64,000 nucleotides of DNA from Escherichia coli (GTDB lineage Bacteria; Pseudomonadota; Gammaproteobacteria; Enterobacterales; Enterobacteriaceae), in NCBI RefSeq assembly GCF_044647545.1, contig NZ_CP172818.1; one strand, 5' to 3'. Shown here in pieces: positions 21,156 to 52,909 of the stretch. Below the pieces are notes generated by a model. The model worked only from the letters and a program-made list of their open reading frames with translations. It ran no database searches and was not told the origin of the DNA. The number at the start of each line of letters is the position of its first letter. Position 1 is the stretch's first letter. The position numbers were made by a program, and so were the translations under genes.

Positions 21156-22654
21156 CAGAAACGCTCCAGTTCAGGAAAAGGTAAATGACCGTGATGCACA
21201 TGCATGGCACCAAATTCAGCACAGCGGTGTAGCGTGGGAATGTTTTTCCCAGGGTTCAGCAAACCATCGGGGTCAAACGCCGCCTTGACCGCATGGAAGG
21301 TCGTGATTTCATCGCTGTTGAACTGGGCGCACATTTGATTGATTTTTTCTCGCCCGATGCCATGTTCGCCACTGATGCTGCCGCCAACTTCAACGCAGAG
21401 TTCGAGGATCTTCCCGCCCAGCTCTTCCGCGCGGGCAAATTCACCGGGTTCGTTGGCATCGAAAAGGATTAACGGGTGCATGTTGCCATCTCCGGCATGA
21501 AAGACGTTGGCAACACGTAAATCATATTGCTGCGATAAACGGGCAATGCCTTCCAGTACGCCAGGCAGGGCGCGACGCGGGATGGTGCCATCCATGCAGT
21601 AGTAATCCGGGGAGATACGTCCTACCGCCGGGAACGCATTTTTGCGACCGGCCCAGAAACGTACGCGCTCTGCTTCGTCCTGTGCCAGACGGACGTCAGT
21701 CGCGCCCGCTTTCAACAAGATGTCGTTAACCCGCTCGCAGTCTTCCTGTACGTCAGACTCCACGCCGTCCAGCTCGCATAACAAAATCGCTTCGGCGTCG
21801 ACGGGATAACCGGCATGAATAAAATCTTCCGCCGCGCGGATCGACAGGTTATCCATCATCTCCAGCCCGCCGGGGATAATGCCATTGGCGATGATGTCAC
21901 CAACCGCAAGTCCGGCTTTTTCTACCGAGTCAAAGCTGGCTAACAGAACCCGCGCCACGGGCGGCTTCGGCAGCAGTTTTACCGTCACTTCGGTGGTCAC
22001 GCCGAGCATACCTTCCGATCCGGTGAACAGCGCCAGCAGGTCAAAACCAGGTGAATCCAGCGCGTCCGATCCAAGCGTCAGTGCCTCGCCGTCCAGCGTT
22101 TGCACTTCAATTTTCAGCAGGTTATGTACGGTCAGACCATATTTCAGGCAGTGGACGCCGCCGGCATTTTCAGCCACATTGCCGCCAATGGAACAGGCGA
22201 TTTGTGAGGAAGGGTCCGGTGCGTAGTAGAGATTATGCGGTGCAACGGCCTGGGAGATCGCCAGGTTACGCACGCCTGGCTGCACGCGCGCGCGGCGACC
22301 AACGGGGTTAATGTCGAGGATCTCTTTAAAGCGCGCCATCACCAACAACACACCTTTTTCCAGCGGCAGCGCGCCACCAGAAAGCCCGGTGCCTGCACCA
22401 CGGGTCACCACCGGTACACGCAGGCGATGGCAGACAGCCAGAATCGCTGTCACCTGTTCCATTTGCTTAGGCAGAACAACCAGTAATGGACGCGTGCGAT
22501 ACGCGCTCAACCCGTCACACTCGTAAGGAATGATCTCCTCATCGGTATGCAGGATCTCAAGTCCAGGGACATGCTCACGCAGTGCCATCAGTACCGATGT
22601 GCGGTCGACATCGGGTAAAGCGCCATCAAGACGCTCTTCGTACAAGATGCTCAT
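21155..22654 (-). CDS. glcD: Glycolate oxidase subunit GlcD (FAD-linked oxidase), 499 aa
   Basis: ORF track 499 aa beginning MSILYEERLDGALPDVDRT... Confidence 0.95.
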   Translation of the reverse strand: MSILYEERLDGALPDVDRTSVLMALREHVPGLEILHTDEEIIPYECDGLSAYRTRPLLVVLPKQMEQVTAILAVCHRLRVPVVTRGAGTGLSGGALPLEKGVLLVMARFKEILDINPVGRRARVQPGVRNLAISQAVAPHNLYYAPDPSSQIACSIGGNVAENAGGVHCLKYGLTVHNLLKIEVQTLDGEALTLGSDALDSPGFDLLALFTGSEGMLGVTTEVTVKLLPKPPVARVLLASFDSVEKAGLAVGDIIANGIIPGGLEMMDNLSIRAAEDFIHAGYPVDAEAILLCELDGVESDVQEDCERVNDILLKAGATDVRLAQDEAERVRFWAGRKNAFPAVGRISPDYYCMDGTIPRRALPGVLEGIARLSQQYDLRVANVFHAGDGNMHPLILFDANEPGEFARAEELGGKILELCVEVGGSISGEHGIGREKINQMCAQFNSDEITTFHAVKAAFDPDGLLNPGKNIPTLHRCAEFGAMHVHHGHLPFPELERF

Positions 22655-22904
22655 GAGTAGGCTTCGCTTTGTTGTGTTGTGTGGCAGCTGATTTTTGCGC
22701 GCTGCTTCTGTGAACAGTTATTAAGCGGGCTTTTCGTTTTCGTCTATCTCTTTAGCTACCGGTCAGACCATTTTTTTTCCAGCTCTGTGACCTTGTCTTG
22801 GTTAACTCAATGTTAAATTGATGTAACATAATCACTTACGTGATGTGCGTGTTTTGCGAGTTAAGAACAGAAAAATTGGTCCTACCTGTGCACGAGGTCC
22901 GGGA
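22655..22904. promoter_or_regulatory. Divergent glcC / glcDEFGBA promoter-operator region
   Basis: 250-bp intergenic region between divergently transcribed glcD and glcC; established site of GlcC-dependent activation; individual sites not resolved here. Confidence 0.5.
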
Positions 22905-23669
22905 ATGAAAGATGAACGTCGCCCTATTTGCGAAGTGGTTGCAGAGAGTATCGAACGGTTAATTATCGACGGCGTACTGAAGGTCGGTCAGCCGCTTCCC
23001 TCGGAACGTCGACTGTGTGAAAAGCTCGGCTTCTCACGCTCCGCACTGCGTGAAGGGCTGACCGTGCTGCGCGGGCGCGGGATTATTGAAACGGCGCAGG
23101 GTCGCGATTCTCGTGTCGCACGGCTTAATCGGGTGCAGGACACCAGCCCGCTGATCCATCTGTTCAGTACGCAGCCGCGAACGCTGTACGATCTGCTCGA
23201 CGTTCGCGCATTACTGGAGGGCGAATCGGCAAGGCTGGCGGCAACGCTGGGAACGCAGGCTGATTTTGTTGTGATAACCCGCTGTTATGAAAAAATGCTC
23301 GCCGCCAGTGAGAACAACAAAGAGATTTCGCTGATCGAACATGCGCAGTTGGATCACGCTTTCCATCTCGCCATTTGTCAGGCTTCTCACAATCAGGTGC
23401 TGGTGTTTACGCTGCAATCATTGACCGATCTGATGTTTAATTCAGTGTTTGCCAGCGTAAATAATCTCTACCATCGACCACAGCAAAAAAAGCAGATCGA
23501 TCGCCAGCATGCGCGGATCTACAACGCGGTGTTGCAGCGGCTGCCGCACGTCGCCCAGCGCGCAGCACGCGATCATGTGCGGACCGTGAAAAAGAATCTC
23601 CACGATATCGAGCTGGAAGGCCACCATTTGATTCGCTCGGCGGTGCCGCTGGAGATGAACCTGAGTTAG
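22905..23669 (+). CDS. glcC: GntR/FadR-family transcriptional activator of the glc operon, 254 aa
   Basis: ORF track 22845..23669; native start at the Met giving MKDERRPICEVVAESIERL... with N-terminal winged-helix region. Confidence 0.93.
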   Translation: MKDERRPICEVVAESIERLIIDGVLKVGQPLPSERRLCEKLGFSRSALREGLTVLRGRGIIETAQGRDSRVARLNRVQDTSPLIHLFSTQPRTLYDLLDVRALLEGESARLAATLGTQADFVVITRCYEKMLAASENNKEISLIEHAQLDHAFHLAICQASHNQVLVFTLQSLTDLMFNSVFASVNNLYHRPQQKKQIDRQHARIYNAVLQRLPHVAQRAARDHVRTVKKNLHDIELEGHHLIRSAVPLEMNLS

Positions 23670-23675
23670 CTGGTA

Positions 23676-24950
23676 TTAAATCTGCTTTTCATACAATCGG
23701 TAACGCTTGTACGGCTCCGCCCCAATGCGTTCCAGCATGTTATTCATGCCTGTATTGGTTTCGAGGATCCATGACATCTCCAGCGCATCGATCTTCCGGC
23801 GGGCAAACGGATCGCGTAAGGCTTCAATCAATAACAGCGCAATCACCGGGCCGATGCGGCTGAACTGATACTCGTCGCGCACGCCCATCAGCGGTACTCG
23901 CGCAGTTCGCACACCGCTGACTTTCAAACGCCACAGCAATTTTGCCCAGCCGAAGGGAAAGAGCGATCCGTTCAGATCGGCAATCGCCTCGTTGATGTTC
24001 GGCAAGCCGACAATAAACGCGCAGGGTGCAGAATCAATCTCAGCGATATAGATCATATCGTCCGGCACCAGATATTTAAGTTGATCGCCCATGGTCGCGA
24101 ATTCATGTTCGGTAAACGGCACAAATCCCCAGTTGTGCTGCCAGCCAGAGTTGAAAATCTCACGCAGGATCTGCATCTCTTCGGCAAACCGCTGACGATT
24201 GATGCAGCGAATGGTCACCTTTTTGCGCACCTGATCCATCAGTTTTTTTAGCGCCGGAGAGAAAGTGAGATCGGTTCGCTGCATCCACCACGCCAGTAAA
24301 TCAATGCCTTTGTGATAACCCAGTTGTTCAATATGCGCGGCATACCACGGTTTGCCGTGTGGCATCATCGCACAGGGTGGTGTGTCAAAACCTTCAATCA
24401 GTAATCCGCTTTCCTGATTGATATTCAGGCTGAAAGGACCGCTGATCTTACTTGCACCTTGTGACTTCAACCACGCTTCCGCTGCGCCAAACAACGCGGC
24501 AAAAACCTGCGGATCATCAATGGCGTCAATCATGCCGAAATGACCGGTATCTTTGCCGTAACGCTCGCGGTGCAAGGTATCTATTTGCGCGGTAATACGC
24601 CCAACTATCTGCCCCGCTTTTTTTGCCACCCACGCCTGCCAGATGATATGGTCCGTCCCCGGATTTTTCGCAGACAAATGCTCGTTGCGTTCAATGAATA
24701 AAGGGGGTATCCAGTTTGGATCGTCGGGATAAAGTGATGACGGAAAAGCGATAAATGCCTTAAGGTCATTTTTATTAAAGACGTCGCGAAACTGAAGACA
24801 ACCGGAAATTAACTTAAAACACTCCGAACGAATTTTATAATAAAAAACGATCGCGTCATACCGAAACAATACGATTCGTAAGTTTTTTTCCATATCCTTA
24901 TCGCGTCCCTCATTCAATCGTTTTAAGCCAGGATCCCTGGTTAACGGCAA
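23676..24950 (-). CDS. yghO: YghO (GNAT-like acyltransferase fold protein); 5' end uncertain
   Basis: 424-aa ORF convergent with glcC; its start abuts the anomalous block; I recall yghO being a pseudogene interrupted by IS5 in K-12, and no IS5 is present here. Confidence 0.7.
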   Translation of the reverse strand: MPLTRDPGLKRLNEGRDKDMEKNLRIVLFRYDAIVFYYKIRSECFKLISGCLQFRDVFNKNDLKAFIAFPSSLYPDDPNWIPPLFIERNEHLSAKNPGTDHIIWQAWVAKKAGQIVGRITAQIDTLHRERYGKDTGHFGMIDAIDDPQVFAALFGAAEAWLKSQGASKISGPFSLNINQESGLLIEGFDTPPCAMMPHGKPWYAAHIEQLGYHKGIDLLAWWMQRTDLTFSPALKKLMDQVRKKVTIRCINRQRFAEEMQILREIFNSGWQHNWGFVPFTEHEFATMGDQLKYLVPDDMIYIAEIDSAPCAFIVGLPNINEAIADLNGSLFPFGWAKLLWRLKVSGVRTARVPLMGVRDEYQFSRIGPVIALLLIEALRDPFARRKIDALEMSWILETNTGMNNMLERIGAEPYKRYRLYEKQI

Positions 24951-24989
24951 TACGAACGATTCCTCACGTCCATTCGAACGATATCCCTA

Positions 24990-25500
24990 CCTCCATACAC
25001 CTCCCACACCCTTTCCGGCTCATTATCACCCACCGAAGAGGCTAATCACGTCTATAACACGACGGCATTAAATTACCCGCGACCGCATCGCTCCTCTACC
25101 ATGAAGGGACGGTCGGCTTGACCCCCCCACGCACCATAGATTACGCACCAATCACTCCCCAAGCTTAAAGACATAAAAACCGGCACCTCCCCCGCCCATG
25201 AATTTCCACGCCCTGAATGAAAGAAATCCCTGAACTGGATCTTTCTCTGCGCGTCGCGGTATTTCAGAACCCATCTCCAGAACAGACTCTATCAATTTGC
25301 CATGCCCCACATTAACTATGATCATTCAACCCACGCATACAACGAATACATTTTAACCACCCTTTTAACATACCAACCGATTCCTCCACTCCACCGAAAA
25401 TTATACGCCTACCTCCATACACCCCCACACCGTTTCCCGTCATTACACCCACCGAACACCGAACACTCTATAACACACGCATTAAATACCCCCGACCCCT
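24990..25500. repeat. C/A-rich non-coding segment with two imperfect ~100-bp direct repeats (about 24990-25090 and 25408-25500)
   Basis: CTACCTCCATACACC..CCCACACC..TTTCC..TCATTA.CACCCACCGAA...TCTATAACAC..CATTAAAT..ACCC occurs twice at roughly 80 percent identity by eye; no ORF support. Confidence 0.4.
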
Positions 25501-26024
25501 CTCCCCTTTCACCAATAATTCGGCTTTCTCCTGACCCCCCCACCACATAATTACATAATTTACTCCAATTAAAATCATAAAAAATCCGGCATTTCTCCTC
25601 TATGAATCCACTAATAAAAAATCTAATGGATCTCCCCTTACAAACACCCAAACAACCATCAATAATTTATTAAACAAACTCAACACAAAAATTCACTTTT
25701 ATGAACTCTTAACGAATATCCACACCAAACAGTAAACCCCTCAAACACGCCTATCGATTTTCCGTCAAGTAAAACTTTTGAACAGATTGAAAATCCGCAG
25801 TGAAGCATATCCGGCGCGGCGGAATTTAGTGCAGATGCTTCATCACTCCTCTCAACCTTTAACGAAATCCAATCTCAAATCAGTAAACCTCCCCGGTCAA
25901 AACGCCTATCACTTCTCAACTGCGGCAAAGCTGGAAATTATTAAATCCAGCACTGTGAGCGGTGTATGCCTTGGCGGAACAGTTTCGGTAAGCCACCTCA
26001 TCTCCGGTCCGTCTATGACTTACT

Positions 26025-26426
26025 TTGGCGACCAGTTCGCAAGCAATTGCCGCGACGGGCTGGTTAGACACCGGCGACCTCGGTTATCTGCTGGACGGTT
26101 ATCTGTATGTCACCGGACGCATTAAAGATCTGATTATTATTCGTGGCCGTAATATCTGGCCGCAGGATATTGAATATATAGCGGAACAGGAACCGGAAAT
26201 TCATTCTGGCGATGCGATTGCTTTTGTTACCGCCCAGGAAAAAATCATTTTGCAGATCCAGTGTCGGATCAGCGACGAAGAACGTCGCGGGCAGGTTTCC
26301 CACCCCGCACGCGGCCAAAATGAAAATGGAGTTACCCCTGCTAGCGATTTTCGATCTCTCCACACCACACCCTTTTACGGCCCCTCCAACCCCACCCGTG
26401 CGCAAGCGGAAACACGTAAACATTAG
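26025..26426 (+). pseudogene. Fragment of a fatty acyl-AMP ligase / adenylate-forming enzyme (C-terminal subdomain only)
   Basis: ORF translation contains WLDTGDLGYLLDGYLYVTGRIKDLIIIRGRNIWPQDIEYIAEQEPEI, matching the conserved TGDLG...TGRxKDLIIxRGxNxYPQDIE motif of FAAL/acyl-CoA synthetases; the N-terminal ~450 aa of such enzymes is absent. Confidence 0.55.
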
Positions 26427-26558
26427 CGTAGGCTTCTAGTCTCAATGTTCATGAACCCCAATCATTAATCAAACTGACACTGTGACGGTGGCGAGCGGTA
26501 CTAGCTTTAAAGGTATTAATATTATAACCTGCTCGCCCGCGGCTTTCACGTTCGCGCA

Positions 26559-26840
26559 TTGACGCGTACTGCCCGCGCTCACGTCAATGATAATCTCCCC
26601 TCGGTGGGGGGTTGGCTGCAGGATACTCATTCACTTAGCGAGCTGGTTGCCGGAGCCAGCGTAGTGGTCCATTGCGCCGGGCAAGTGCGCGGGACAAGCA
26701 CCACGCTAATCGACCAGTCTAACCTTACCAAGCACCAAAGAGAGCTGCTAGCGCCAACGGTGTCCGTTTTTTTCTACCCTTTTCTCTTTCTATCTTCAGT
26801 TCCCCCGTACCCAAACGCGCTATACTGCTCTGAGCAATGA
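26559..26840 (+). pseudogene. Possible NAD(P)-binding (SDR/epimerase-like) fragment
   Basis: Short ORF with ...LVAGASVVVHCAGQVRG... resembling a Rossmann-fold motif; weak. Confidence 0.2.
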
Positions 26841-27764
26841 CAATCAGTAATGGCGGACCAAATGACGCTGGTGGTGGACCACCTTACAGTCGGCGTTTTT
26901 CCCGCGAAAAAAGTGTTTAAACCCCGCGTTGACGGGATGAAACCCCTCTTTCTGTGACTACTTGGCGCCCTACAGACACAGCTTTCTTTGCCGGATATCA
27001 CCCTTTTTTTTCAGCAGGTGACCAATTAAGCCGGAGAAGCGCCTCAATGATACAGACGCAAAAATACAAGCAAACCTATGAATTATGCGATGGCGTCGCC
27101 GGCGGCTATGACTGGCAACGCGTACAGCAACTTGCCGCCGACGCCCGTTGCGGTTCCCTGGATGGTGTTCATTGCCGGTACTCACCGGCCTTGCGGATAT
27201 CAGTACCGCGTTGAGTCGCCTGGCAGGTAAAGAACCTATGCTCTACCCGTCGAAAATTCGTGAATTAACCCACGCTACCTTTCGTCAACTTCTAACCCTG
27301 TTGTTGAAGATAGTTAGCCTGGTCCCCGGATTACCCAGCAAGACGTATTACTTAACTTGTTTTTTGGTCTGTCACGTTTATATGTTTAATAATGTAATAA
27401 TAATAAATTGTAAAATTTCCTTTTTACAGGATTTTGTCGATATAGTGTAGTTATTCCGAAAGAGGGGGATCTCGTAAGCGCTATAGCCATTGCGTCGATG
27501 AACGTGCTGGGACTCTTTCTAATGGTTGGAGCCCGTAACGATGTTTCCATACCGATTCATATTTTGATGGCTATTAATACCCCTGCGGATGTCATAACCA
27601 CTGTGCTATCATGGGTGGCGCTTCTATCATGGGGCTATAAGGTAGATGTGCGCGACTAGCTAGAGGGCGACTGCGCTTTCGAGCCACCGCATTTTAGCCA
27701 TTACGGGTTACTCACCTGTTTATGATGTTTATTTCCGCCACCGAAGGCCGGATCGGCAATAAAA

Positions 27765-28259
27765 ATGATATCTGGCCGGGACCGATTTTTCGGTTTTGTA
27801 ACCTTTAATCATGATGCCATAGGCGAAGGTCAGGCCGCGTTAGCGGCCCAAGGTACCGGCACCACCGGTTCTCGTATGGCAAACGGCAGTTATGCGCCGC
27901 ACCTGGCGTTAGAGAAAGAGATTGCCGAGTTTTTCAATCGCCCTACCGCTATCGTTTTTTCAACCGGTTATACCGCTAATTTAGGCGTCATCAGCGCACT
28001 TGCCGACCATAACGCCGTGGTGTTACTGGATGCCGACAGCCACGCCAGTATTTATGACGCCTGTTCTCTCGGTGGCGCGGAAATTATTCGTTTCCGCCAT
28101 AACGATGCTAAAGATCTGGAACGGCGGATGGTTCGCCCCGGTGAACGGGCGAAAGAGGCGATTATCATCGTTGAGGGTATCTACAGCATGCTCGGTGACG
28201 TTGCGCCGTTAGCGGAAATTGTTGATAAACATCTGCGTGTGGGTGATTTTTGTTTCTAG
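27765..28259 (+). pseudogene. Fragment of an alpha-oxoamine synthase (BioF/KBL/serine palmitoyltransferase family, PLP-dependent)
   Basis: ORF translation GSRMANGSYAPHLALEKEIAEFFNRPTAIVFSTGYTANLGVISALADHNAVVLLDADSHASIYDACSLGGAEIIRFRHNDAKDLERRM...IIIVEGIYSMLGDVAPLAEIV matches the conserved N-terminal/middle part of AOS enzymes; the region with the catalytic lysine is missing. Confidence 0.6.
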
Positions 28260-28423
28260 TAAGGCCCTTTGGTTTGCGTTGTAGGCGGAAAGGGGGGGCG
28301 AACTGCTTAAACTTGTCGGGGTTGAGGTTATTGTGATTTTTATCGTCGGCACCTTCAGTAAGTCTCTCCCCTAGTTTCGCTTTTTTTGTCTGGTTTCGAA
28401 AGAGGTAAAAGTGGTGCGATGCC

Positions 28424-28468
28424 ACCCCCCCCCATATTTTTTTCCCCCCTCTCTTTCCCCCCCCTCGA
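28424..28468. repeat. Homopolymer-rich low-complexity tract (poly-C, poly-T)
   Basis: GCCACCCCCCCCCATATTTTTTTTCCCCCCTCTCTTTCCCCCCCC; atypical for E. coli. Confidence 0.6.
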
Positions 28469-28918
28469 CGCGCCCGTGCCGTTAACAATGAGCGCCATAC
28501 CACCAGAGCCGGGGCAAAAGCTGATGGAGAAGGATAATCACCTGTATCACTGTGTCGATATACAAGGATTGGATTTTAGGTTACATATAAGTATTAGAGT
28601 GCTGGTAATAATCATAATCAAATAGGACGGGGTACGTATCCGGCTCTAGCGTGTGTTTCTTTCGTTGATCTTTTATGTGCATCTTATCCTCCCCCCTGCC
28701 GGGCATCACGCCGTCGCGCTGTACCCTAAAGCGTGCACACTGCTGAGAGTAGACAAATCGATGCCATCATTCAGGCATTTGCTACTCTGAAGCAGTAATG
28801 TGAGCCCGCCGTGGTGTTGCGCCACGGCGGGTTTAATGTGTTGTGTGATATCACTTACACCAGGCTCAACGCCACCAGCACAAACGCTATCGGTAAACCG
28901 AGCGCGGTAACAGGTGCG

Positions 28919-29997
28919 TCACGCAAATAGCAATCCCAGATTGACCATGATTTGATAGCTGATCCAGGTGAGTAAGCCAACGATGACACCTACAGCGAGA
29001 CGGCTACCCATCCCTCGGGAGCGCGGGGCGCTAAAAATAAACTGGACAGCCAGGAAAAATAACCCCAGGGGTAGGAATGGTTTCCCCAGTTTTTCCAACA
29101 TGGCAAGGCGTTATCCGTGGTGGGTTGCCCCGTTTCCTGGCAATTATGGGAGTTATGGATTAAGTGGAGGGACGGAAAATATATTCCCCCGTCGTTATAA
29201 CTTTTCAATTTTTATACGTGTAAAGCGCTTGCCCGGGGCAATTTTATGATATTTTCCGAGTGTTTTTGCGCCTCTCCCCTATTTTTTCTTTCACTATTAC
29301 ACCATGCAGGATCCACGTTTTGTCGTCTTCAATGGTGGCACTGCGTGCATAAATGTAGGATTCGAGCGAAAGATTACCACGAGATTGTAATATCTCTCCG
29401 CCCACAGGGGCTCCCCGTGCTTGTTGCGCGTTTACCGCGACAAATTTTCTACCCCGCCCCTCCCACAGCGCATTTTGGGGGTAGTGACCTCCTCCCCCCC
29501 ACGGCGCTGGCAGTCGATTTGATTTGCAGCGCCTGTTGCTGCAATGGCGACGCCACCCACTCATCTATCGCGCCTAACGAAACAGTCCACAATATCCCGG
29601 CAACCAGCGCCACCAGTGCAATACGGAAGATAGAAAACCCAGTGCTGCGAATGGCGGTAAGCTCACTGTTTTTCGATAACTGCCCCAGGCCAACAATCCC
29701 TCCCAATAATGCGATAAACGGCGAAAGTTCGACCAGTGTACGCGGTAAGGTCATCAGCACCACCAGCACCGCCTGAGTCCAGCGATAACCGCCCGGGCTG
29801 ACATCATCCAGTTCGTTAATCAGGTTGAAGGTGGTAAAAAGCGGCAGCAATAGCCCTGCGGCGGCGGCAAAACCGAGAAAGAGATGACGGATTAAATAGC
29901 GACTGAAAACGTTCTTCGGGAAAATTTCTGGAGCAAAGAGAAGTCGCGTGCGACCAGCATCAGCAGGCCCATTAGCATGAGTCCGGGTACTAACCAC
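28919..29997 (-). pseudogene. LptF/LptG-family (YjgP/YjgQ) permease homolog, fragmented (N-terminal and C-terminal pieces in different frames)
   Basis: ORF 29449..29997 has FSRYLIRHLFLGF...LPRTLVELSPFIALLGGIVGLGQLSKNSELTAIRSTGFS, an LptG-like N-terminus; ORF 28919..29101 resembles the C-terminal TM segments; frames are broken. Confidence 0.45.
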
Positions 29998-30981
29998 AAA
30001 CCAGGAAGGATGGGGACGCGTTTGCGCCCGTTAGCGCACTCGGCAGACGTCGCCGCCATAAAAAATGGCAATAAACAGCAACGTCAGTGGCAATAACGTT
30101 GTAAAATCGCCCTTGCCGCGGTTTTACCCGACTTAATGAAATGGCCAGCAGCGCCATCAACAATGCGGTCAGGCCACGGCTTTGTCGCCATTGCAGTTCG
30201 GCATGATCGGCAGGAAAGGCGGAGCGCGCCAGCTCCGTGACCGATTTTGCTTTGCGTTTGACGTTAGGGCTTTGATCCAGCGGATTCAGATGTAATTGCA
30301 GATTACGGTAGATCTGTTCGTTGTCGTCACGCCCCTGATGATCGAGAAGATAGGCGGTGCCATTCAACAAAATGATCGTTGGTTAGTTGAGTGGTCAACC
30401 ACACCAATCGAACGGACGCGGGAAAAACGTGTGCGATCGGTAGGAGAAGGATAAATCAGTGCGTGAGTCAGTCGAGCATTTATTTTATTAACCGACCGTC
30501 AAAGGAACATTCGTTCGTTAGTTTTCGTTTGTATTTTATTTCTTCCCCAACAAGTGGAGATCCACCAGCTACGGCTACGGCTGTTCCAGCCGATAAAAAT
30601 TCTGAGAATCCCACGGCCGACGATCCAACGACGGAAGGGGGATAAAAATACTTATTGGTATTATCAGAAAATGAAGGGCGGCTTTCAACCGTCGCCCAGG
30701 GCCCCCCCCGAGAGAGAGCTGGAGGTTATTAGCGGGTAGATATCCGTCCGACCGAGAGTCCAACCGACAGATACATACCGACAGGCAAGTACATCCCCAT
30801 CGCGAGCAGTACGCTGTATGTAACGATCGCTATCCCGAACATCAAGAGCTAAGGTCCCATTTGCCGCTTCGGTCAGATAACGCTGTGCGGAGTAGCTGGC
30901 GAAAATAAAGATCAGAAAACCGACGATAATCAGCACCAGACGGCGCGTACCACGCATGATGTAGTGTTCAACCAGCTTCAT
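29990..30981 (-). pseudogene. Second LptF/LptG-family permease homolog, fragmented (tandem with the downstream copy)
   Basis: ORF 30685..30981 starts MKLVEHYIMRGTRRLVLIIVGFLIFIF (LptF-like N-terminus); ORF 29990..30370 has AELQWRQSRGLTALLMALLAISLSRVKPRQGRF matching the conserved NPRQGR region; frames are broken. Confidence 0.45.
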
Positions 30982-31011
30982 CTCACTAACACCCTCAATC
31001 CTTTGAATTTT

Positions 31012-31573
31012 TTATTCATTGATCAGTTTCTGCGCCAGCGCAATGACATGATCTACCTCTTCCGGCGTCAGGCTGCCGTCCTTTGCCCACTGAATTTGCC
31101 CGTCTTTATTCAGCACCAGAATGGTTGAACTCTGCTCCGGCAACCGCCAGGCAACGCGTCCCAGTCCATTGCCGTCAATAACGAATTGCGCCCACGGATA
31201 GCGGCGTTTATTTTTTTCGATTTTGCCAACGACAAAATAGCCAGTACCAAAGATGGCATCATCGGTGTTCACAATGGTGGTGGGCTGAAAACGATCCTGC
31301 GGAAAGTTTGCCGCTTCAACCGCTTTAATTAACAGTGGCTTTTTTTTTTTCGCGGCCACTCACCCGGCGCTATATTCGGTATAACGCGGTTTTCCCCCGC
31401 GATGTGTGCTGTTCCCCACTTTGTGGTGTGTATTGTCGTCGCTCTATTCAGAAGGATCGCCCCGTTCCTGGGTATTAAACGGGGGTAACCGTTTTGCCAG
31501 TGACAAAATTGTGTGCCTGCACACCCTGGGCTAAGAGCATGATAATCAGCGCAATAATCAAACGAGATGACAT
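31012..31573 (-). pseudogene. YtfJ-family periplasmic protein homolog, frameshifted near a poly-T/poly-A tract
   Basis: C-terminal ORF 31012..31359 has ...TTIVNTDDAIFGTGYFV...YPWAQFVIDGNGL...LVLNKDGQIQWAKDGSLTPEEV matching E. coli YtfJ as I recall it; a signal-peptide-like N-terminus MSSRLIIALIIMLLAQGVQAHNF begins at 31573 in another frame; total span fits a ~185-aa protein. Confidence 0.55.
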
Positions 31574-32675
31574 CATTGCTCCGGTTATAGCGGAAAACGC
31601 GAAATCAGCAGCTCTAAGCGCTGGCGAATATCGCTATCCAGCGCCACCGGTGCATTATACGACCGGGCGGTTTTCCTAATAATCCCCACCATTGTGGCCG
31701 TGTTTTCCCCCATCAGGCCATTAATGGCGGCGAGGAAGCGGGAAATCTTTTATTGCTTTTGTTTATCAAGCGATCTTAAGGTGTCGTAATAAGAAACCTG
31801 CTGACTGATGATTTTTCGCACATCATGAAATTCCCTGCCGGTTAGTCGCGGTTTGGCAATTATCTTTTCATGTGAATTATTTTTTTTCGATAAAAATAAA
31901 AAAACTTCCGATTTTTGAATTGGTAAGGCTTAATGAAAATTCCACCAAGGACAAGACCGAAAAGTTTAATAAAACCCTAAACAATTTCCCTTAAACCAAC
32001 CCATTATTTTCTTTACCTTTAGGAAAACCTCCTGGAAACGGCCCCAAAAAAACGTCCTTTTTCCGGTAAAAAAATCCCCTCTTATTTGATAGTAAATACA
32101 GCCAATGCACAAAATTCAGGCGCTTTCAGCTCTCTTTTATGATTTTATTGTTCATCCGCAGTAAGATTCACCTCATTGCCTTTTTTCTGTTTTCATAGTA
32201 AACGCACCAACTCATTGAGATTAATGAGACTGAGTTAGAAGTGTAGCCAGTACTTGTAATTAATAATATGATTGGGTAAATATAATGTAATGCTAGACGC
32301 CACACTAAACTGACCAGCGCCGCCATCATATTATTCTACTCAACCGAAACAAAGATACCTCCCCTCGCGCGAAAAATGTAATATTTTCTTTATGATTACT
32401 ATTCCGCTCCGTTATCAAGATAAAGAAAGGAATGGCGCTGAAAAAATGCCGTCAAGGTTGGAGAGAACGAGAGCACCAGATATAGACAACCGCCATCGAA
32501 AAAAGCAAATCCCACCCCGACACGCAAACAACTACAAACAGATGAACAGCAATACGAAACTATACCGATGATGTCATGTTTCGCCACGATTGAGGCGATG
32601 GTTTCCCACGAAAAACCCTTTTTCCCCATCATACAATACTCCTGTGGGAAAAGCGCGCTGTTCCCCGCATCGAAA

Positions 32676-33791
32676 TCAAAGACTCCGGGAACCACATCGA
32701 AATACAATTGCGCCCAGCATCACCTGAATCAGGTCATACGCTTCGAGATACTTAACGCCAAACACCAGCGCAATAAGCGGCTTGCCGACGATCAACACCG
32801 CGAGCGCCACCAGAATACCGATTCCGCCCGCCAGTAAACCTGACTTCACGCCTAACAACCACGGTCTGGTGGTGCGCGGATCTAAACGCATCACCTCTGG
32901 GTAAAAACTTTTGCCCAGTAAACCCGCTGGCGTTCCGGCGGCGTCGAAGAATGTCATGGCGATTTTAAATAACCCGGCGGCAGCGGGTCCTAACACGATC
33001 CCCACCAGCACTGTGCTGCACGAGTTACGCGCCGACCAGATGGAGTGGGCAATGTTGGTTGACCAGACAAAACTCCACGCGCCTTTAATGTGTCGGGCAG
33101 ACTCAAACAGATTCAATTTGAAGGCGTTATGGATATTTCTGCGGCGTAATTCGCGCGCGGCAAACCACCAGTACATGGTGCCGCCAACCAGATTCGACAC
33201 GTACCAGGCAATAACAAAACCCGCAAAACCAAAGTCAAAATACCAGGCTACGACGCTCCCCGCTGCGCGCAGAAAAGGTTTCGTCGCTTGCTGTACAGCA
33301 ATTAGATCGAAGCGATCTACCGCACGCAGAATGCCGGTCGGCGTGGAGGAAGCCATTGAAGGAATGAGCGTGCAATACAGCGCTGCCAGCCAAAAGCTTT
33401 GGTCATCCAGACCTAATGAATGGGAAAGAAAAGGGAGTAAGGCAATGCCGCCGACAATCGCCACCGCGCCGCTGACGATATCCAGCGAGAAGGAAAATGA
33501 GACGACATTGCGAAATTGCTGCGGATTATTGTTGGTCAAGGCTGGCGTTCCGTACTGCACCACCAACTGCCATGTCTGAAACTTAATAAAATCGCTGATC
33601 GACTTGGCGTACGATTGCACAATCACCAGTACGCCAAACATGGCGGGCGTCATCCCTTTACCGGCACACGAGAGCGCCAACAGACCCAGTAAAGCGCTCA
33701 CGACATTACTGGAGCCTAACCAGGCGCTATTGCGAATAATGGTGCGAAACGCGCCATCTGCAAACCAATGTTTGATGTTAAAACCCGCCAA
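32676..33791 (-). CDS. yghQ: Polysaccharide-transporter/flippase-like inner membrane protein YghQ; 3' end possibly disturbed
   Basis: 371-aa polytopic membrane ORF; its C-terminus borders the anomalous block, and a further out-of-frame ORF follows at 32399..32707. Confidence 0.85.
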   Translation of the reverse strand: MAGFNIKHWFADGAFRTIIRNSAWLGSSNVVSALLGLLALSCAGKGMTPAMFGVLVIVQSYAKSISDFIKFQTWQLVVQYGTPALTNNNPQQFRNVVSFSFSLDIVSGAVAIVGGIALLPFLSHSLGLDDQSFWLAALYCTLIPSMASSTPTGILRAVDRFDLIAVQQATKPFLRAAGSVVAWYFDFGFAGFVIAWYVSNLVGGTMYWWFAARELRRRNIHNAFKLNLFESARHIKGAWSFVWSTNIAHSIWSARNSCSTVLVGIVLGPAAAGLFKIAMTFFDAAGTPAGLLGKSFYPEVMRLDPRTTRPWLLGVKSGLLAGGIGILVALAVLIVGKPLIALVFGVKYLEAYDLIQVMLGAIVFRCGSRSL

Positions 33792-33836
33792 TTCAGCCTG
33801 ACCTTATCGTTGATAGTAAAAAGTATCCCGCCAGCC

Positions 33837-34595
33837 TTAAGTTAAACTTCGGCGGTCAGAAACGATGGCAACCAGAGAAACCGCCTTCTGTGCCTGTTCC
33901 AGCACTTCGCTGTAAGGCGCTCTGGAATCAATCTCAAGAATTTTTGTGCCGTTATAGCCAATCTTCGACATGACGCCGATTTTGTCCTGCAATTCGGCAT
34001 AGTCATGGTCAGGCTTGCGGGAAATGGCAGTATCAATATCAATCCCCAAACGAATGATTAATTCAGGACGGTATTGCGCCATTTGTTGGTATAAACGCCG
34101 TTCGCGCTGCGCCAGAAACATGCTGATTTTCCCGGTCGCACGTTCGACGCCGATCCCCGGTCCGTCATAATAAAAGCCCGAAATTTCAGCCTGCGGGAAG
34201 CGATCGCTGACCACCAGAACGCCACTTTGCGCCAGTCGCTGAACCTTGCGTAGATTCGCCATTCTTCGCAGCGAGAAGCAGTACATAATCACCGCCGCCC
34301 ATAGCGCTGGAGATTTGGTTTTCATGCTTTGGGTTTTCGATGATTTGGCCGCCAGTCGCCGTTCGAGCCAGACGCCAACCAACGGCAATCGTTTGATTTT
34401 GTCGCCGTCTTCGCCCGAGAGCAGCCCCAGATAGCGGCGCTCGGTTTGCCAGTGTTGTTGCAGCGATTTCACCAGATCGGTGGTCAGTGTGGATTTACCG
34501 GTACCATCACACCCGACCACCGCAATCAGCCCCGGAATGTAGTTGGGCTGCGGCGCGGTTGTACTATTAACAGTTTGTGTTTGTAGTGCGTCCAT
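33837..34595 (-). CDS. yghR: P-loop NTPase family protein YghR, 252 aa
   Basis: Walker A motif GCDGTGKST near the N-terminus; paralogous to yghS and yghT. Confidence 0.9.
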   Translation of the reverse strand: MDALQTQTVNSTTAPQPNYIPGLIAVVGCDGTGKSTLTTDLVKSLQQHWQTERRYLGLLSGEDGDKIKRLPLVGVWLERRLAAKSSKTQSMKTKSPALWAAVIMYCFSLRRMANLRKVQRLAQSGVLVVSDRFPQAEISGFYYDGPGIGVERATGKISMFLAQRERRLYQQMAQYRPELIIRLGIDIDTAISRKPDHDYAELQDKIGVMSKIGYNGTKILEIDSRAPYSEVLEQAQKAVSLVAIVSDRRSLT

Positions 34596-34626
34596 TCGTT
34601 AAATCATCCCCTATCCATTTTGGTGA

Positions 34627-35340
34627 TCAGGAAAGCGCAGCGTGAATTGCGCGTAGTGACGCTTGCAGAATTTCATCGGCTGGTTGCCGACCATCCAGTT
34701 CAAGGATCTTTGCGCCATTGAATGTCAGTTGCGGCGTAACGGCGATTTTTTCCTGTAACGCTGCCAGTTGGTGGTCAGGTTTACGCGCAAACGCGGTTTG
34801 TTCATCAATGCCAAGACGAATCAACAATACGGGCAAATAAGACGCCATCCATTGGTACAGCTTCAGCTCGCGCTGCCTTAACATTTTTATCCAACCGTTA
34901 CCGCCCGTGGTTTTTGCCAATTGCGGGCCATCAAAGCGAAAACCCGGCACTTCAACCTGCGGGTAGCGGTCGGTGATGAGCAGGTAGCCTTGCTGGCTTT
35001 TACACAACATTTTGCGAAACTTGTACGCCCGCCAGCAGGAAAGCAGATAGATAACCAGCGCAGTCATATTGCCAGGCGGTGTGGAGGGCTTTTCGTGCAC
35101 ATGTGCCGCTTTACTTCGCAGATAACGCCCAAAAGGTGCGCCAATAACAGGGAGCTGTGAAATCCATTCGCCAATTCGCCCGGACGATTGCCCGAGATAA
35201 ATGTGTTCTGTTGGCATTGTTGCTGCCAGTTCATTTACCAGGCTTGCCGTGAGGGTCGATTTACCTGAACCATCACATCCTACAATGGCAATAACACGCA
35301 CTGGCGTGGAATTAATTATTGACATATTACGTTGATTCAC
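34627..35340 (-). CDS. yghS: P-loop NTPase family protein YghS, 237 aa
   Basis: Walker A motif GCDGSGKST; paralog of YghR. Confidence 0.9.
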   Translation of the reverse strand: MNQRNMSIINSTPVRVIAIVGCDGSGKSTLTASLVNELAATMPTEHIYLGQSSGRIGEWISQLPVIGAPFGRYLRSKAAHVHEKPSTPPGNMTALVIYLLSCWRAYKFRKMLCKSQQGYLLITDRYPQVEVPGFRFDGPQLAKTTGGNGWIKMLRQRELKLYQWMASYLPVLLIRLGIDEQTAFARKPDHQLAALQEKIAVTPQLTFNGAKILELDGRQPADEILQASLRAIHAALS

Positions 35341-35514
35341 GAAAAACCCGGCAGCAAATAATGTATTGAATATTACGTGGTCCGTGCTCAGAATATCCGT
35401 TCAACCTTATTGTGACAATGGTTAATTGTGACATTGACCTGAATTACGCTTTCATCAAAAACATATTAACCAAATAAATATTTTGGATGGATATTTAAAT
35501 TTAAGGATATATTC

Positions 35515-40977: not shown

Positions 40978-41093
40978 GGCAACATTGGCACTTATCCTAT
41001 TACCATAAACATTTTAACTAACCCCAAAACCACATTTCATTAACTTTTTCCCTCCCCAATTTTTTTTTTTTCCTAAAAAACACCCCCCTTCCC

Positions 41094-41150
<57 letters not shown>

Positions 41151-41169
41151 ATTTTCGTGCAGCGAGTCC

Positions 41170-41520
41170 CATTTCCCCCGATAAGACCGGTATTTCTTCA
41201 GGCCACAGGAGACTTCAGGCCAAGCTGCTGCATCAGTTTTCGCACCGTTTTGCCACTGAACTTGAGACCTCTTTTCTGAAGTTCACAGTCGATCCGCCGG
41301 TACCCATAACATCCCCGGTGTTCATGGAAGATGGAGGGGATGGGCTGTTTCACATCACAATACTTTTCTTAGCCTTCTGCAGTGACAGCTGATAGTACAG
41401 CGTGCTTCTGGCCAGCCCTGCGAAGCCTTTAACAGGTCAGACTGGCAGTGTCCGCACCTCAGGTTCTGGATGACTTTCGCTTTTTCTCCAGCTCCAGGCG
41501 CTTTTTTCCCAGGAGATCCT
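41170..41520 (-). mobile_element. IS3-family transposase remnant (OrfB N-terminal region, frameshifted and truncated)
   Basis: Minus-strand translations give ...GLARSTLYYQLSLQKAKKSIVM and EHRGCYGYRRIDCELQKRGLKFSGKTVRKLMQQLGL, matching the conserved N-terminal motifs of IS3-family OrfB; no DDE catalytic domain and no inverted repeats follow. Confidence 0.5.
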
Positions 41521-42037
41521 CCTGCATGCCTTCCAGATATGCATTTCCTGCGCAAAAATACCCCCCTCCTTCTTCTCTCTTTCCGCCCTCTGTTTCCCCT
41601 CCTTTTCTCGGGTATCAACAAAACGGTCATTCTTTTCTCCCTCCCGCGCCTAAAAAAGCCCTCACCACCAGTTTGTGTCGCCTTTTTCCTGTTTTCCGCC
41701 GTGTGGTGGCCGGGAATGTTAAAGCCGGCCGGCCGCGGGGGAGAGACAGAGAAAATGCGAGAAAACAAAAAAAAACACGCAAAGTCTCTCTAGAAGAAAA
41801 TAGCCGCCCCCGTTCCTGCAATCCAGGAGCAGAAGAGCGAAAAAAAAAAAAAGAATAAAGGGGGGAGGGGGTGGTATAAAAAAGTTAAAATTGTTGTGGT
41901 GAAAAAAGGAGGCCAGACGGGCCGGTGAAAAAATTCTGTGGGGAAGACTATTTTAAATAAAGGTTTTGTAAAAAACACCACCTGATGTGATATGATATTC
42001 ACTACAAGTGTGGGGTGGAGTTTACGCGCCCTAATCA

Positions 42038-52877: not shown

Positions 52878-52909
52878 GCCCGGTTGTGAAAAGCAACCGG
52901 GCTTTTATT
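52878..52909. terminator. Bidirectional rho-independent terminator between convergent yghA and exbD
   Basis: GCCCGGTTG-tgaaaag-CAACCGGGC stem-loop flanked by A-run and T-run. Confidence 0.65.

Follow-up and report, generated by a model that had tools for sequence, protein, structure and literature searches.

The window analysed here is a 64,000-nucleotide stretch of an Escherichia coli chromosome, with the gene order nupG-speC-pheV, gsp remnant, sslE, glc, yghO/spt module, yghRST, pitB, gss, hyb and onward to ygiQ. Within the yghO/spt module, a sphingolipid module, lies a gene for a YtfJ-family protein that cannot be read through as written. Its remnant consists of the following features, with all positions being those of the window.

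31012–31573, minus strand: whole remnant of the YtfJ-family gene, counterpart of WP_000098713.1 (186 aa; strains ECONIH1 and FDAARGOS_497)
31475–31576, minus strand: N-terminal fragment, an ORF of 33 aa with the signal peptide, ending at TAA 31477–31475
31012–31359, minus strand: C-terminal fragment, an ORF of 115 aa in another frame than the 33-aa ORF, with a GTG start inside the garbled patch
31338–31476: garbled patch of 139 bp, with 24 substitutions and 13 indel columns (37 differing columns) relative to the intact allele
31340–31350: run of 11 T (T11; A11 on the coding strand) inside the patch

The 33-aa ORF reads MMSSRLIIALIIMLLAQGVQA up to the signal-peptide cleavage point and HNFVTGKTVTPV (beginning HNF) from there to the stop codon; by inspection, its N-terminus looks like a typical Sec signal peptide, with charged, hydrophobic and VQA-cleavage regions. 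The 115-aa ORF covers positions 50–159 of the 160 in the YtfJ_HI0045 profile (PF09695), which it matches in a profile search with E = 5.9e-38 and 130.5 bits, far better than chance would give. It also matches TIGR01626 (E = 5e-38, 130.6 bits), falling below the cut-off of 151.1 bits solely because it is truncated. Counted from the ATG at 31573, the gene spans 562 nt, versus 561 nt in the intact allele, a net difference of +1 nt. The original prediction had described a signal-peptide-like N-terminus, a C-terminal part of the YtfJ/HI0045 family in a different frame, a homopolymer near 31340 and a total span fitting one protein of ~185 aa, and each of these observations is borne out. There is no uninterrupted ORF of ~185 aa: the signal peptide is present, a stop follows at codon 33, and the remainder lies in two other frames. 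Outside 31338–31476, the DNA of the gene aligns with the intact allele at 100% identity. The intact allele can be recognized by the string GCGAAGAAAAAGAACTCACTG, the garbled counterpart of which in the record is GCGAAAAAAAAAAAGCCACTG.

Judged by its sequence and neighbors, the gene is the YtfJ-family paralogue of the yghQ-lptF/lptG-like operon that sits beside the E. coli sphingolipid (spt) genes. The intact allele matches PF09695 with E = 1.6e-59 and 200.6 bits (cut-off 24) and TIGR01626 with 216 bits (cut-off 151). Its product, WP_000098713.1, is annotated as “YtfJ family protein” (ECONIH1_RS17720, EGY17_RS04850); the gene is located downstream of yghQ, with a gene for a 275-aa hypothetical protein and the lptF-like and lptG-like genes as neighbors. 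We considered and rejected orthology with ytfJ itself (b4216), since the gene occupies another locus, in the yghQ-lptF/lptG-like operon, and is only 55% identical to K-12 YtfJ (over 184 residues); the K-12 gene lies between ytfI and ytfK. K-12 presumably lacks the paralogue described here. Of 5,426 complete E. coli genomes, 4,120 carry the intact gene at full length and 1,283 have no match to it. A shorter version of the protein, of 153–154 aa and 98–100% identical over 65% of the query, is encoded in many E. coli contigs (120 contigs for one of the matching proteins). This may represent an allele that, in part of the population, has naturally been truncated or re-started at the N-terminus.

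The genes of the module lie on both strands: yghO, aasR, the epimerase gene, acpR and spt on one, and yghQ, the hypothetical gene, the YtfJ-family gene and the lptF-like and lptG-like genes on the other. The E. coli set for dihydroceramide synthesis in BL21(DE3) comprises aca/yghO, aasR, epi, acpR and spt (PMC9386255). The same order is kept in Serratia liquefaciens (locus 523–12784) and Erwinia billingiae (locus 1096–12781), where the shared genes encode an AMP-binding ligase, an epimerase, an ACP and Spt; yghT/S/R-like proteins and a Polysacc_synt protein (yghQ); and a ~277-aa hypothetical protein, a YtfJ_HI0045 protein and two LptF_LptG proteins. The conserved module amounts to ~12 genes, with 24779–35400 as its counterpart in the window; its 277-aa protein has no Pfam match, and yghQ encodes a MOP flippase. 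From its gene content, the conserved module looks like a dedicated set for sphingolipid export. In the papers that we read on the module, the five synthesis genes alone are discussed.

The AlphaFold2 model of the intact protein has a mean pLDDT of 85 and matches TlpA/ResA/Etrx-type thioredoxin-fold proteins (PDB 4hqz, 3eyt, 1st9) in Foldseek, with E of ~1e-7 and TM of 0.5–0.7. A sequence search of solved structures with the protein returned nothing significant. The predicted fold is shared with these proteins, but identity to them is only 10–17% and the YtfJ-family protein has no cysteine, so it has no CXXC redox site. Its best-conserved motif, IAGRxSAKxKN, lies in the intact allele between a strand at 62–69 and a helix at 78–88 (31310–31390 is the equivalent in the window); going by the order of secondary-structure elements, the motif would sit at the CXXC position of thioredoxin folds. 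As a speculation, it may bind an anionic head group. We predict that the intact protein, which lacks cysteine, adopts a thioredoxin-like fold and is exported by the Sec route to the periplasm. Its gene accompanies those for two LptF/LptG-type permeases and a MOP-type flippase, beside the ceramide-synthesis genes, and for this reason the protein most likely has a role in handling or exporting the lipid of the module. Our working model, drawn from gene context only, is of a non-redox periplasmic thioredoxin-fold component that would act with the LptF/G-like permeases and YghQ.

The damage to the gene is concentrated in the 139-bp patch, which spans codons 33–79 and so leaves the gene unreadable in the record; the patch includes the IAGRxSAKxKN motif, the most conserved of the family. 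The first lesion is a 1-nt insertion at ~31476, which changes codon 33 from TAT to TAA. Later small indels shift the best-matching frame twice, and stop codons occur inside the damaged stretch in two of the three frames. At the site of the T11 run, the intact allele reads AAGAAAAAGAA (checked in FDAARGOS_497 and ECONIH1) and the second damaged assembly described below, BS-01, reads GGAGGAGGAG; neither the two strains with the intact allele nor BS-01 has a homopolymer there. The A11 of the coding strand therefore arises from two G-to-A changes in AAGAAAAAGAA, not from a change in homopolymer length. The 31-mer CACACATCGCGGGGGAAAACCGCGTTATACC from the patch has no exact match among 100,044 GTDB species-representative genomes, and over 30600–32000, identity stays at or below 87.7% in all 5,426 complete E. 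coli genomes.

Many other patches accompany this one. The window is closest to the ECONIH1 lineage, which is 100.0% identical over 7000–24700, and the differences from ECONIH1 fall in three zones.

24779–32704: zone 1, the whole sphingolipid module, with ~20 garbled patches alternating with stretches 100% identical to the reference
40979–42031: zone 2, a garbled and shortened remnant of an IS3-family element, which ECONIH1 carries between yghU and hybG
61006–62019: zone 3, two accessory hypothetical genes between yqhH and ygiQ, garbled and shortened by comparison with ECONIH1

Zone 1 affects the 5′ end of yghO, aasR (acyl-AMP ligase), the epimerase gene, acpR, spt, the lptG-like, lptF-like and YtfJ-family genes, the gene for the 275-aa hypothetical protein and the 3′ part of yghQ. 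Its patches range from 12 to 839 bp in 25916–32704, are separated by perfectly matching stretches, and bring the differing columns in that interval to 1,339 of 6,981 (~19%) relative to ECONIH1. The longest ORF between 24950 and 32676 is at most 182 aa. In the record, the N-terminus of YghO is altered and extended, in a form that a collection of 15 billion proteins does not contain. In zone 2, 14 of the 17 G are missing from the 62 bp at 40979–41040, with the other bases kept. In zone 3, a 294-bp stretch with 75 deleted columns precedes ~700 bp that defy alignment. Outside the zones, only 8 of 48,732 aligned columns differ: one substitution, two single-base indels and one 5-bp deletion. The single-base indels lie at 5290, at the 3′ end of yghD, and at 9091, which is intergenic; the 5-bp deletion (CATCA) is at 52903, after yghA. 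A divergent Escherichia lineage, suspected from the 87.7% match, is rejected, as the flanks match the ECONIH1 lineage at 100% identity.

The differences inside the zones have an unusual composition. In zone 1, transitions and transversions number 365 and 679, a ratio of ~0.5 that is about the 1:2 of random replacement. By comparison, a control with natural differences from FDAARGOS_497, in the left part of the window, gave 297:115 (a ratio of 2.6) and essentially no indels; in the patches, indels make up ~25% of the differing columns. The plus strand loses G (173 to 132, 17 to 3 and 81 to 45) while C is about unchanged; in 31866–32704, for example, G falls from 173 to 132 and C goes from 202 to 194. 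Runs of at least six identical bases number 38 in the patches of the window versus 9 in the reference (~4-fold more), making the T11 run one among many. The substituted base equals the preceding base in 378 cases versus 299 expected, and the following base in 362 versus 302 expected. All twelve substitution types are present. The target of a diversity-generating retroelement, in which substitutions would be limited to adenines of a template repeat and indels would be lacking, was considered as a source of such dense change and rejected, given the twelve substitution types and the fact that 13 of the 37 differing columns in the 139-bp patch are indels.

The window also has an uncommon overall structure. 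The tRNA-Phe gene pheV (5068–5143) has yghD immediately after it, and no island lies between them. The segment from gspL to gspD is deleted at the exact K-12-type junction of AATAGTCGGTA and GCGCAGCG (6790–6791), and both flanks are 100% ECONIH1-like. Together, the junction and its flanks give a K-12-like structure with the alleles of another lineage, which is odd for a natural isolate.

A second assembly has the same module wrecked. E. coli BS-01 (NZ_CP172816.1, GCF_044647575.1), a RefSeq “complete genome” of 4,493,816 bp, comes from another lineage, 97–98% identical to the window. There, the same gene is annotated by PGAP as ACIA67_RS14770 (“YtfJ family protein, frameshifted”) and is likewise broken by dense garbage. 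The lesions of the two assemblies are independent: in the aligned gene region, 30990–31600, BS-01 has in common 3 of the 47 columns in which the window differs from the intact allele. In BS-01, the damage affects more of the gene and is biased toward G, with poly-G runs such as GGGGGGCGGGGGGGGGGGGGGG. The BS-01 garbage also includes poly-T runs, and PGAP calls frameshifted or partial pseudogenes in the module as well as in gspC and pppA. The K-12-type gsp deletion junction is common to BS-01 and the window, and the chromosomes of both BS-01 and the record are ~4.49–4.50 Mb versus 5.31 Mb for ECONIH1. Together, BS-01 and the record suggest a common kind of assembly or consensus procedure that mishandles accessory DNA; it may involve a minority genotype at low coverage, a consensus drawn from mixed strains, or reference-assisted correction.

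Several explanations can be offered for the broken gene. The original prediction was of a genuine pseudogene, frameshifted by a single slip at the poly-T tract and restorable by one change in its length. The two ORFs do have a T11 run between them, and the copy is indeed 1 nt longer, net, than the intact allele. We made each possible single-base insertion or deletion in 31330–31500. The longest ORF after any one of them is 82 aa, and shortening or lengthening the tract to T10 or T12 leaves the ORF at 33 aa. The tract is preceded, 125 nt upstream, by the first stop codon, and reopening the frame takes at least two indels. Even the best conceptual repair, with two frame switches, has only 19 identities in the 47 residues from 33 to 79. 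Among residues invariant in the paralogue group over these positions (G38, Y50, W53, G60, K61, R63, Q66, I68, A69, G70, R71, A74, K75 and N78), the best frame-repaired translation keeps 8 of the 14 and loses Y50, K61, Q66, R71, A74 and N78. With no homopolymer at the site in the intact allele or BS-01 either, we give the single slip almost no credence. The claim that one length change would restore the gene fails; the pseudogene call stands insofar as the gene is not intact as written, but not as to the poly-T mechanism or a real pseudogene, as the patch looks like sequence noise. The run might instead mark a contingency gene subject to phase variation, or a gene whose frame is rescued by slippage on A11, either programmed or transcriptional. 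A/T runs of at least nine bases can slip in replication or transcription, and such a run is available here. However, the stop at codon 33 precedes the run, slippage at the run cannot open the frame, and the intact allele carried by most E. coli genomes has no run at all; the probability of this explanation is close to nil.

A more serious alternative is that the scrambled patches are real, making the gene a multi-lesion pseudogene and the sphingolipid module truly dead in the strain. The sequence is, after all, in a deposited genome, and loss of the module is common in E. coli, as the complete genomes that have no match to the gene attest. Against this are the single substitution in 48.7 kb outside the zones versus ~19% differing columns inside, the transition:transversion ratio of ~0.5, the strand-specific loss of G and the inflated homopolymers, a pattern that fits no known bacterial mutational process. 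Long decay is excluded by the 100% identity to the common allele in the stretches that separate the patches, and with one substitution per 48.7 kb, a divergence of 27–38% in interspersed patches is impossible by any clock-like process. We therefore regard real lesions as unlikely. Abrupt boundaries between identical and divergent sequence are also typical of recombination imports, and the gene could be a mosaic in which either a divergent homologue in another species or the paralogue ytfJ donated sequence through recombination or gene conversion. The patch is non-coding, however, with stop codons and frame changes that show it is not a working foreign allele, and its 31-mer is absent from the species-representative genomes. 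K-12 ytfJ matches the window in only 7 of the 47 differing columns versus 25 of 47 for the intact allele, and the spectrum is unlike natural divergence. A mosaic is thus very unlikely. Lastly, the patches could be real and due to some process in the lineage that spares core genes but scrambles accessory DNA of recent acquisition, introducing dense substitutions with a strand bias together with small indels. If true, such a process would be a bacterial counterpart of repeat-induced point mutation, with the sphingolipid module, an IS3 element and one small island as its targets; we consider it extremely improbable.

We favor sequence noise. From the pattern of differences alone, it is highly probable that a known YtfJ-family paralogue has been made unreadable by sequence-quality noise in the deposited record. 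The patches would be errors in the deposited sequence, e.g., from an unpolished, low-coverage or badly called consensus, and the T11 run and the two out-of-frame ORFs would be by-products of that noise. The gene is non-functional as written, while the strain itself probably carries the intact allele. All of the ~20 patches fall in three accessory segments, in a genome that is essentially identical elsewhere. An artefact is expected to appear as sharply bounded patches in otherwise identical sequence and to have a spectrum that is not evolutionary, and the window has both: the first in the abrupt edges of the patches, the second in the transition:transversion ratio, the indels, the strand-specific base loss and the homopolymers. 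Three points weigh against noise. The exact 115-aa ORF occurs in a deposited NCBI genome (chromosome of 4,499,902 bp), meaning that the garbling was submitted by the depositor and is not later damage; the same exact match argues against a machine-generated sequence, which we also considered. To our knowledge, the substitution-dominated spectrum matches no single platform's textbook error profile. The third point is the confinement of the noise to accessory DNA.

If the record is noisy in this way, the lesson is one of quality control: what passes for a homopolymer-frameshift pseudogene is one sign among others that a deposited genome contains patches of garbage. Such records can mislead pseudogene counts, pan-genome calls and the training of language models, and the BS-01 record merits a data-quality flag. 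The biology is ordinary, in that the gene is a known and widespread YtfJ-family paralogue. It is of mild interest as a conserved member of the enterobacterial sphingolipid module, where its association with LptF/LptG-like permeases hints at a dedicated route for export.

The broken gene can be set beside three known systems. Homopolymer contingency loci resemble it in having a long A/T run in coding sequence between out-of-frame halves; they differ in that a change in run length here does not rescue the frame, and in that the run is missing from the intact allele. Comparison with WP_000098713.1 itself shows one and the same gene and locus, an unchanged signal peptide, unchanged C-terminal 107 residues and identical bases everywhere outside 31338–31476, but the record copy stops at codon 33 and undergoes two further frame changes. 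The namesakes of PF09695 and TIGR01626, K-12 YtfJ (b4216) and Haemophilus influenzae HI0045, share with the paralogue their family, length, signal peptide and single-domain layout. K-12 YtfJ differs in its location at the ytfI-ytfK locus, whereas the paralogue lies between the gene for the 275-aa hypothetical protein and the lptF-like gene, next to spt.
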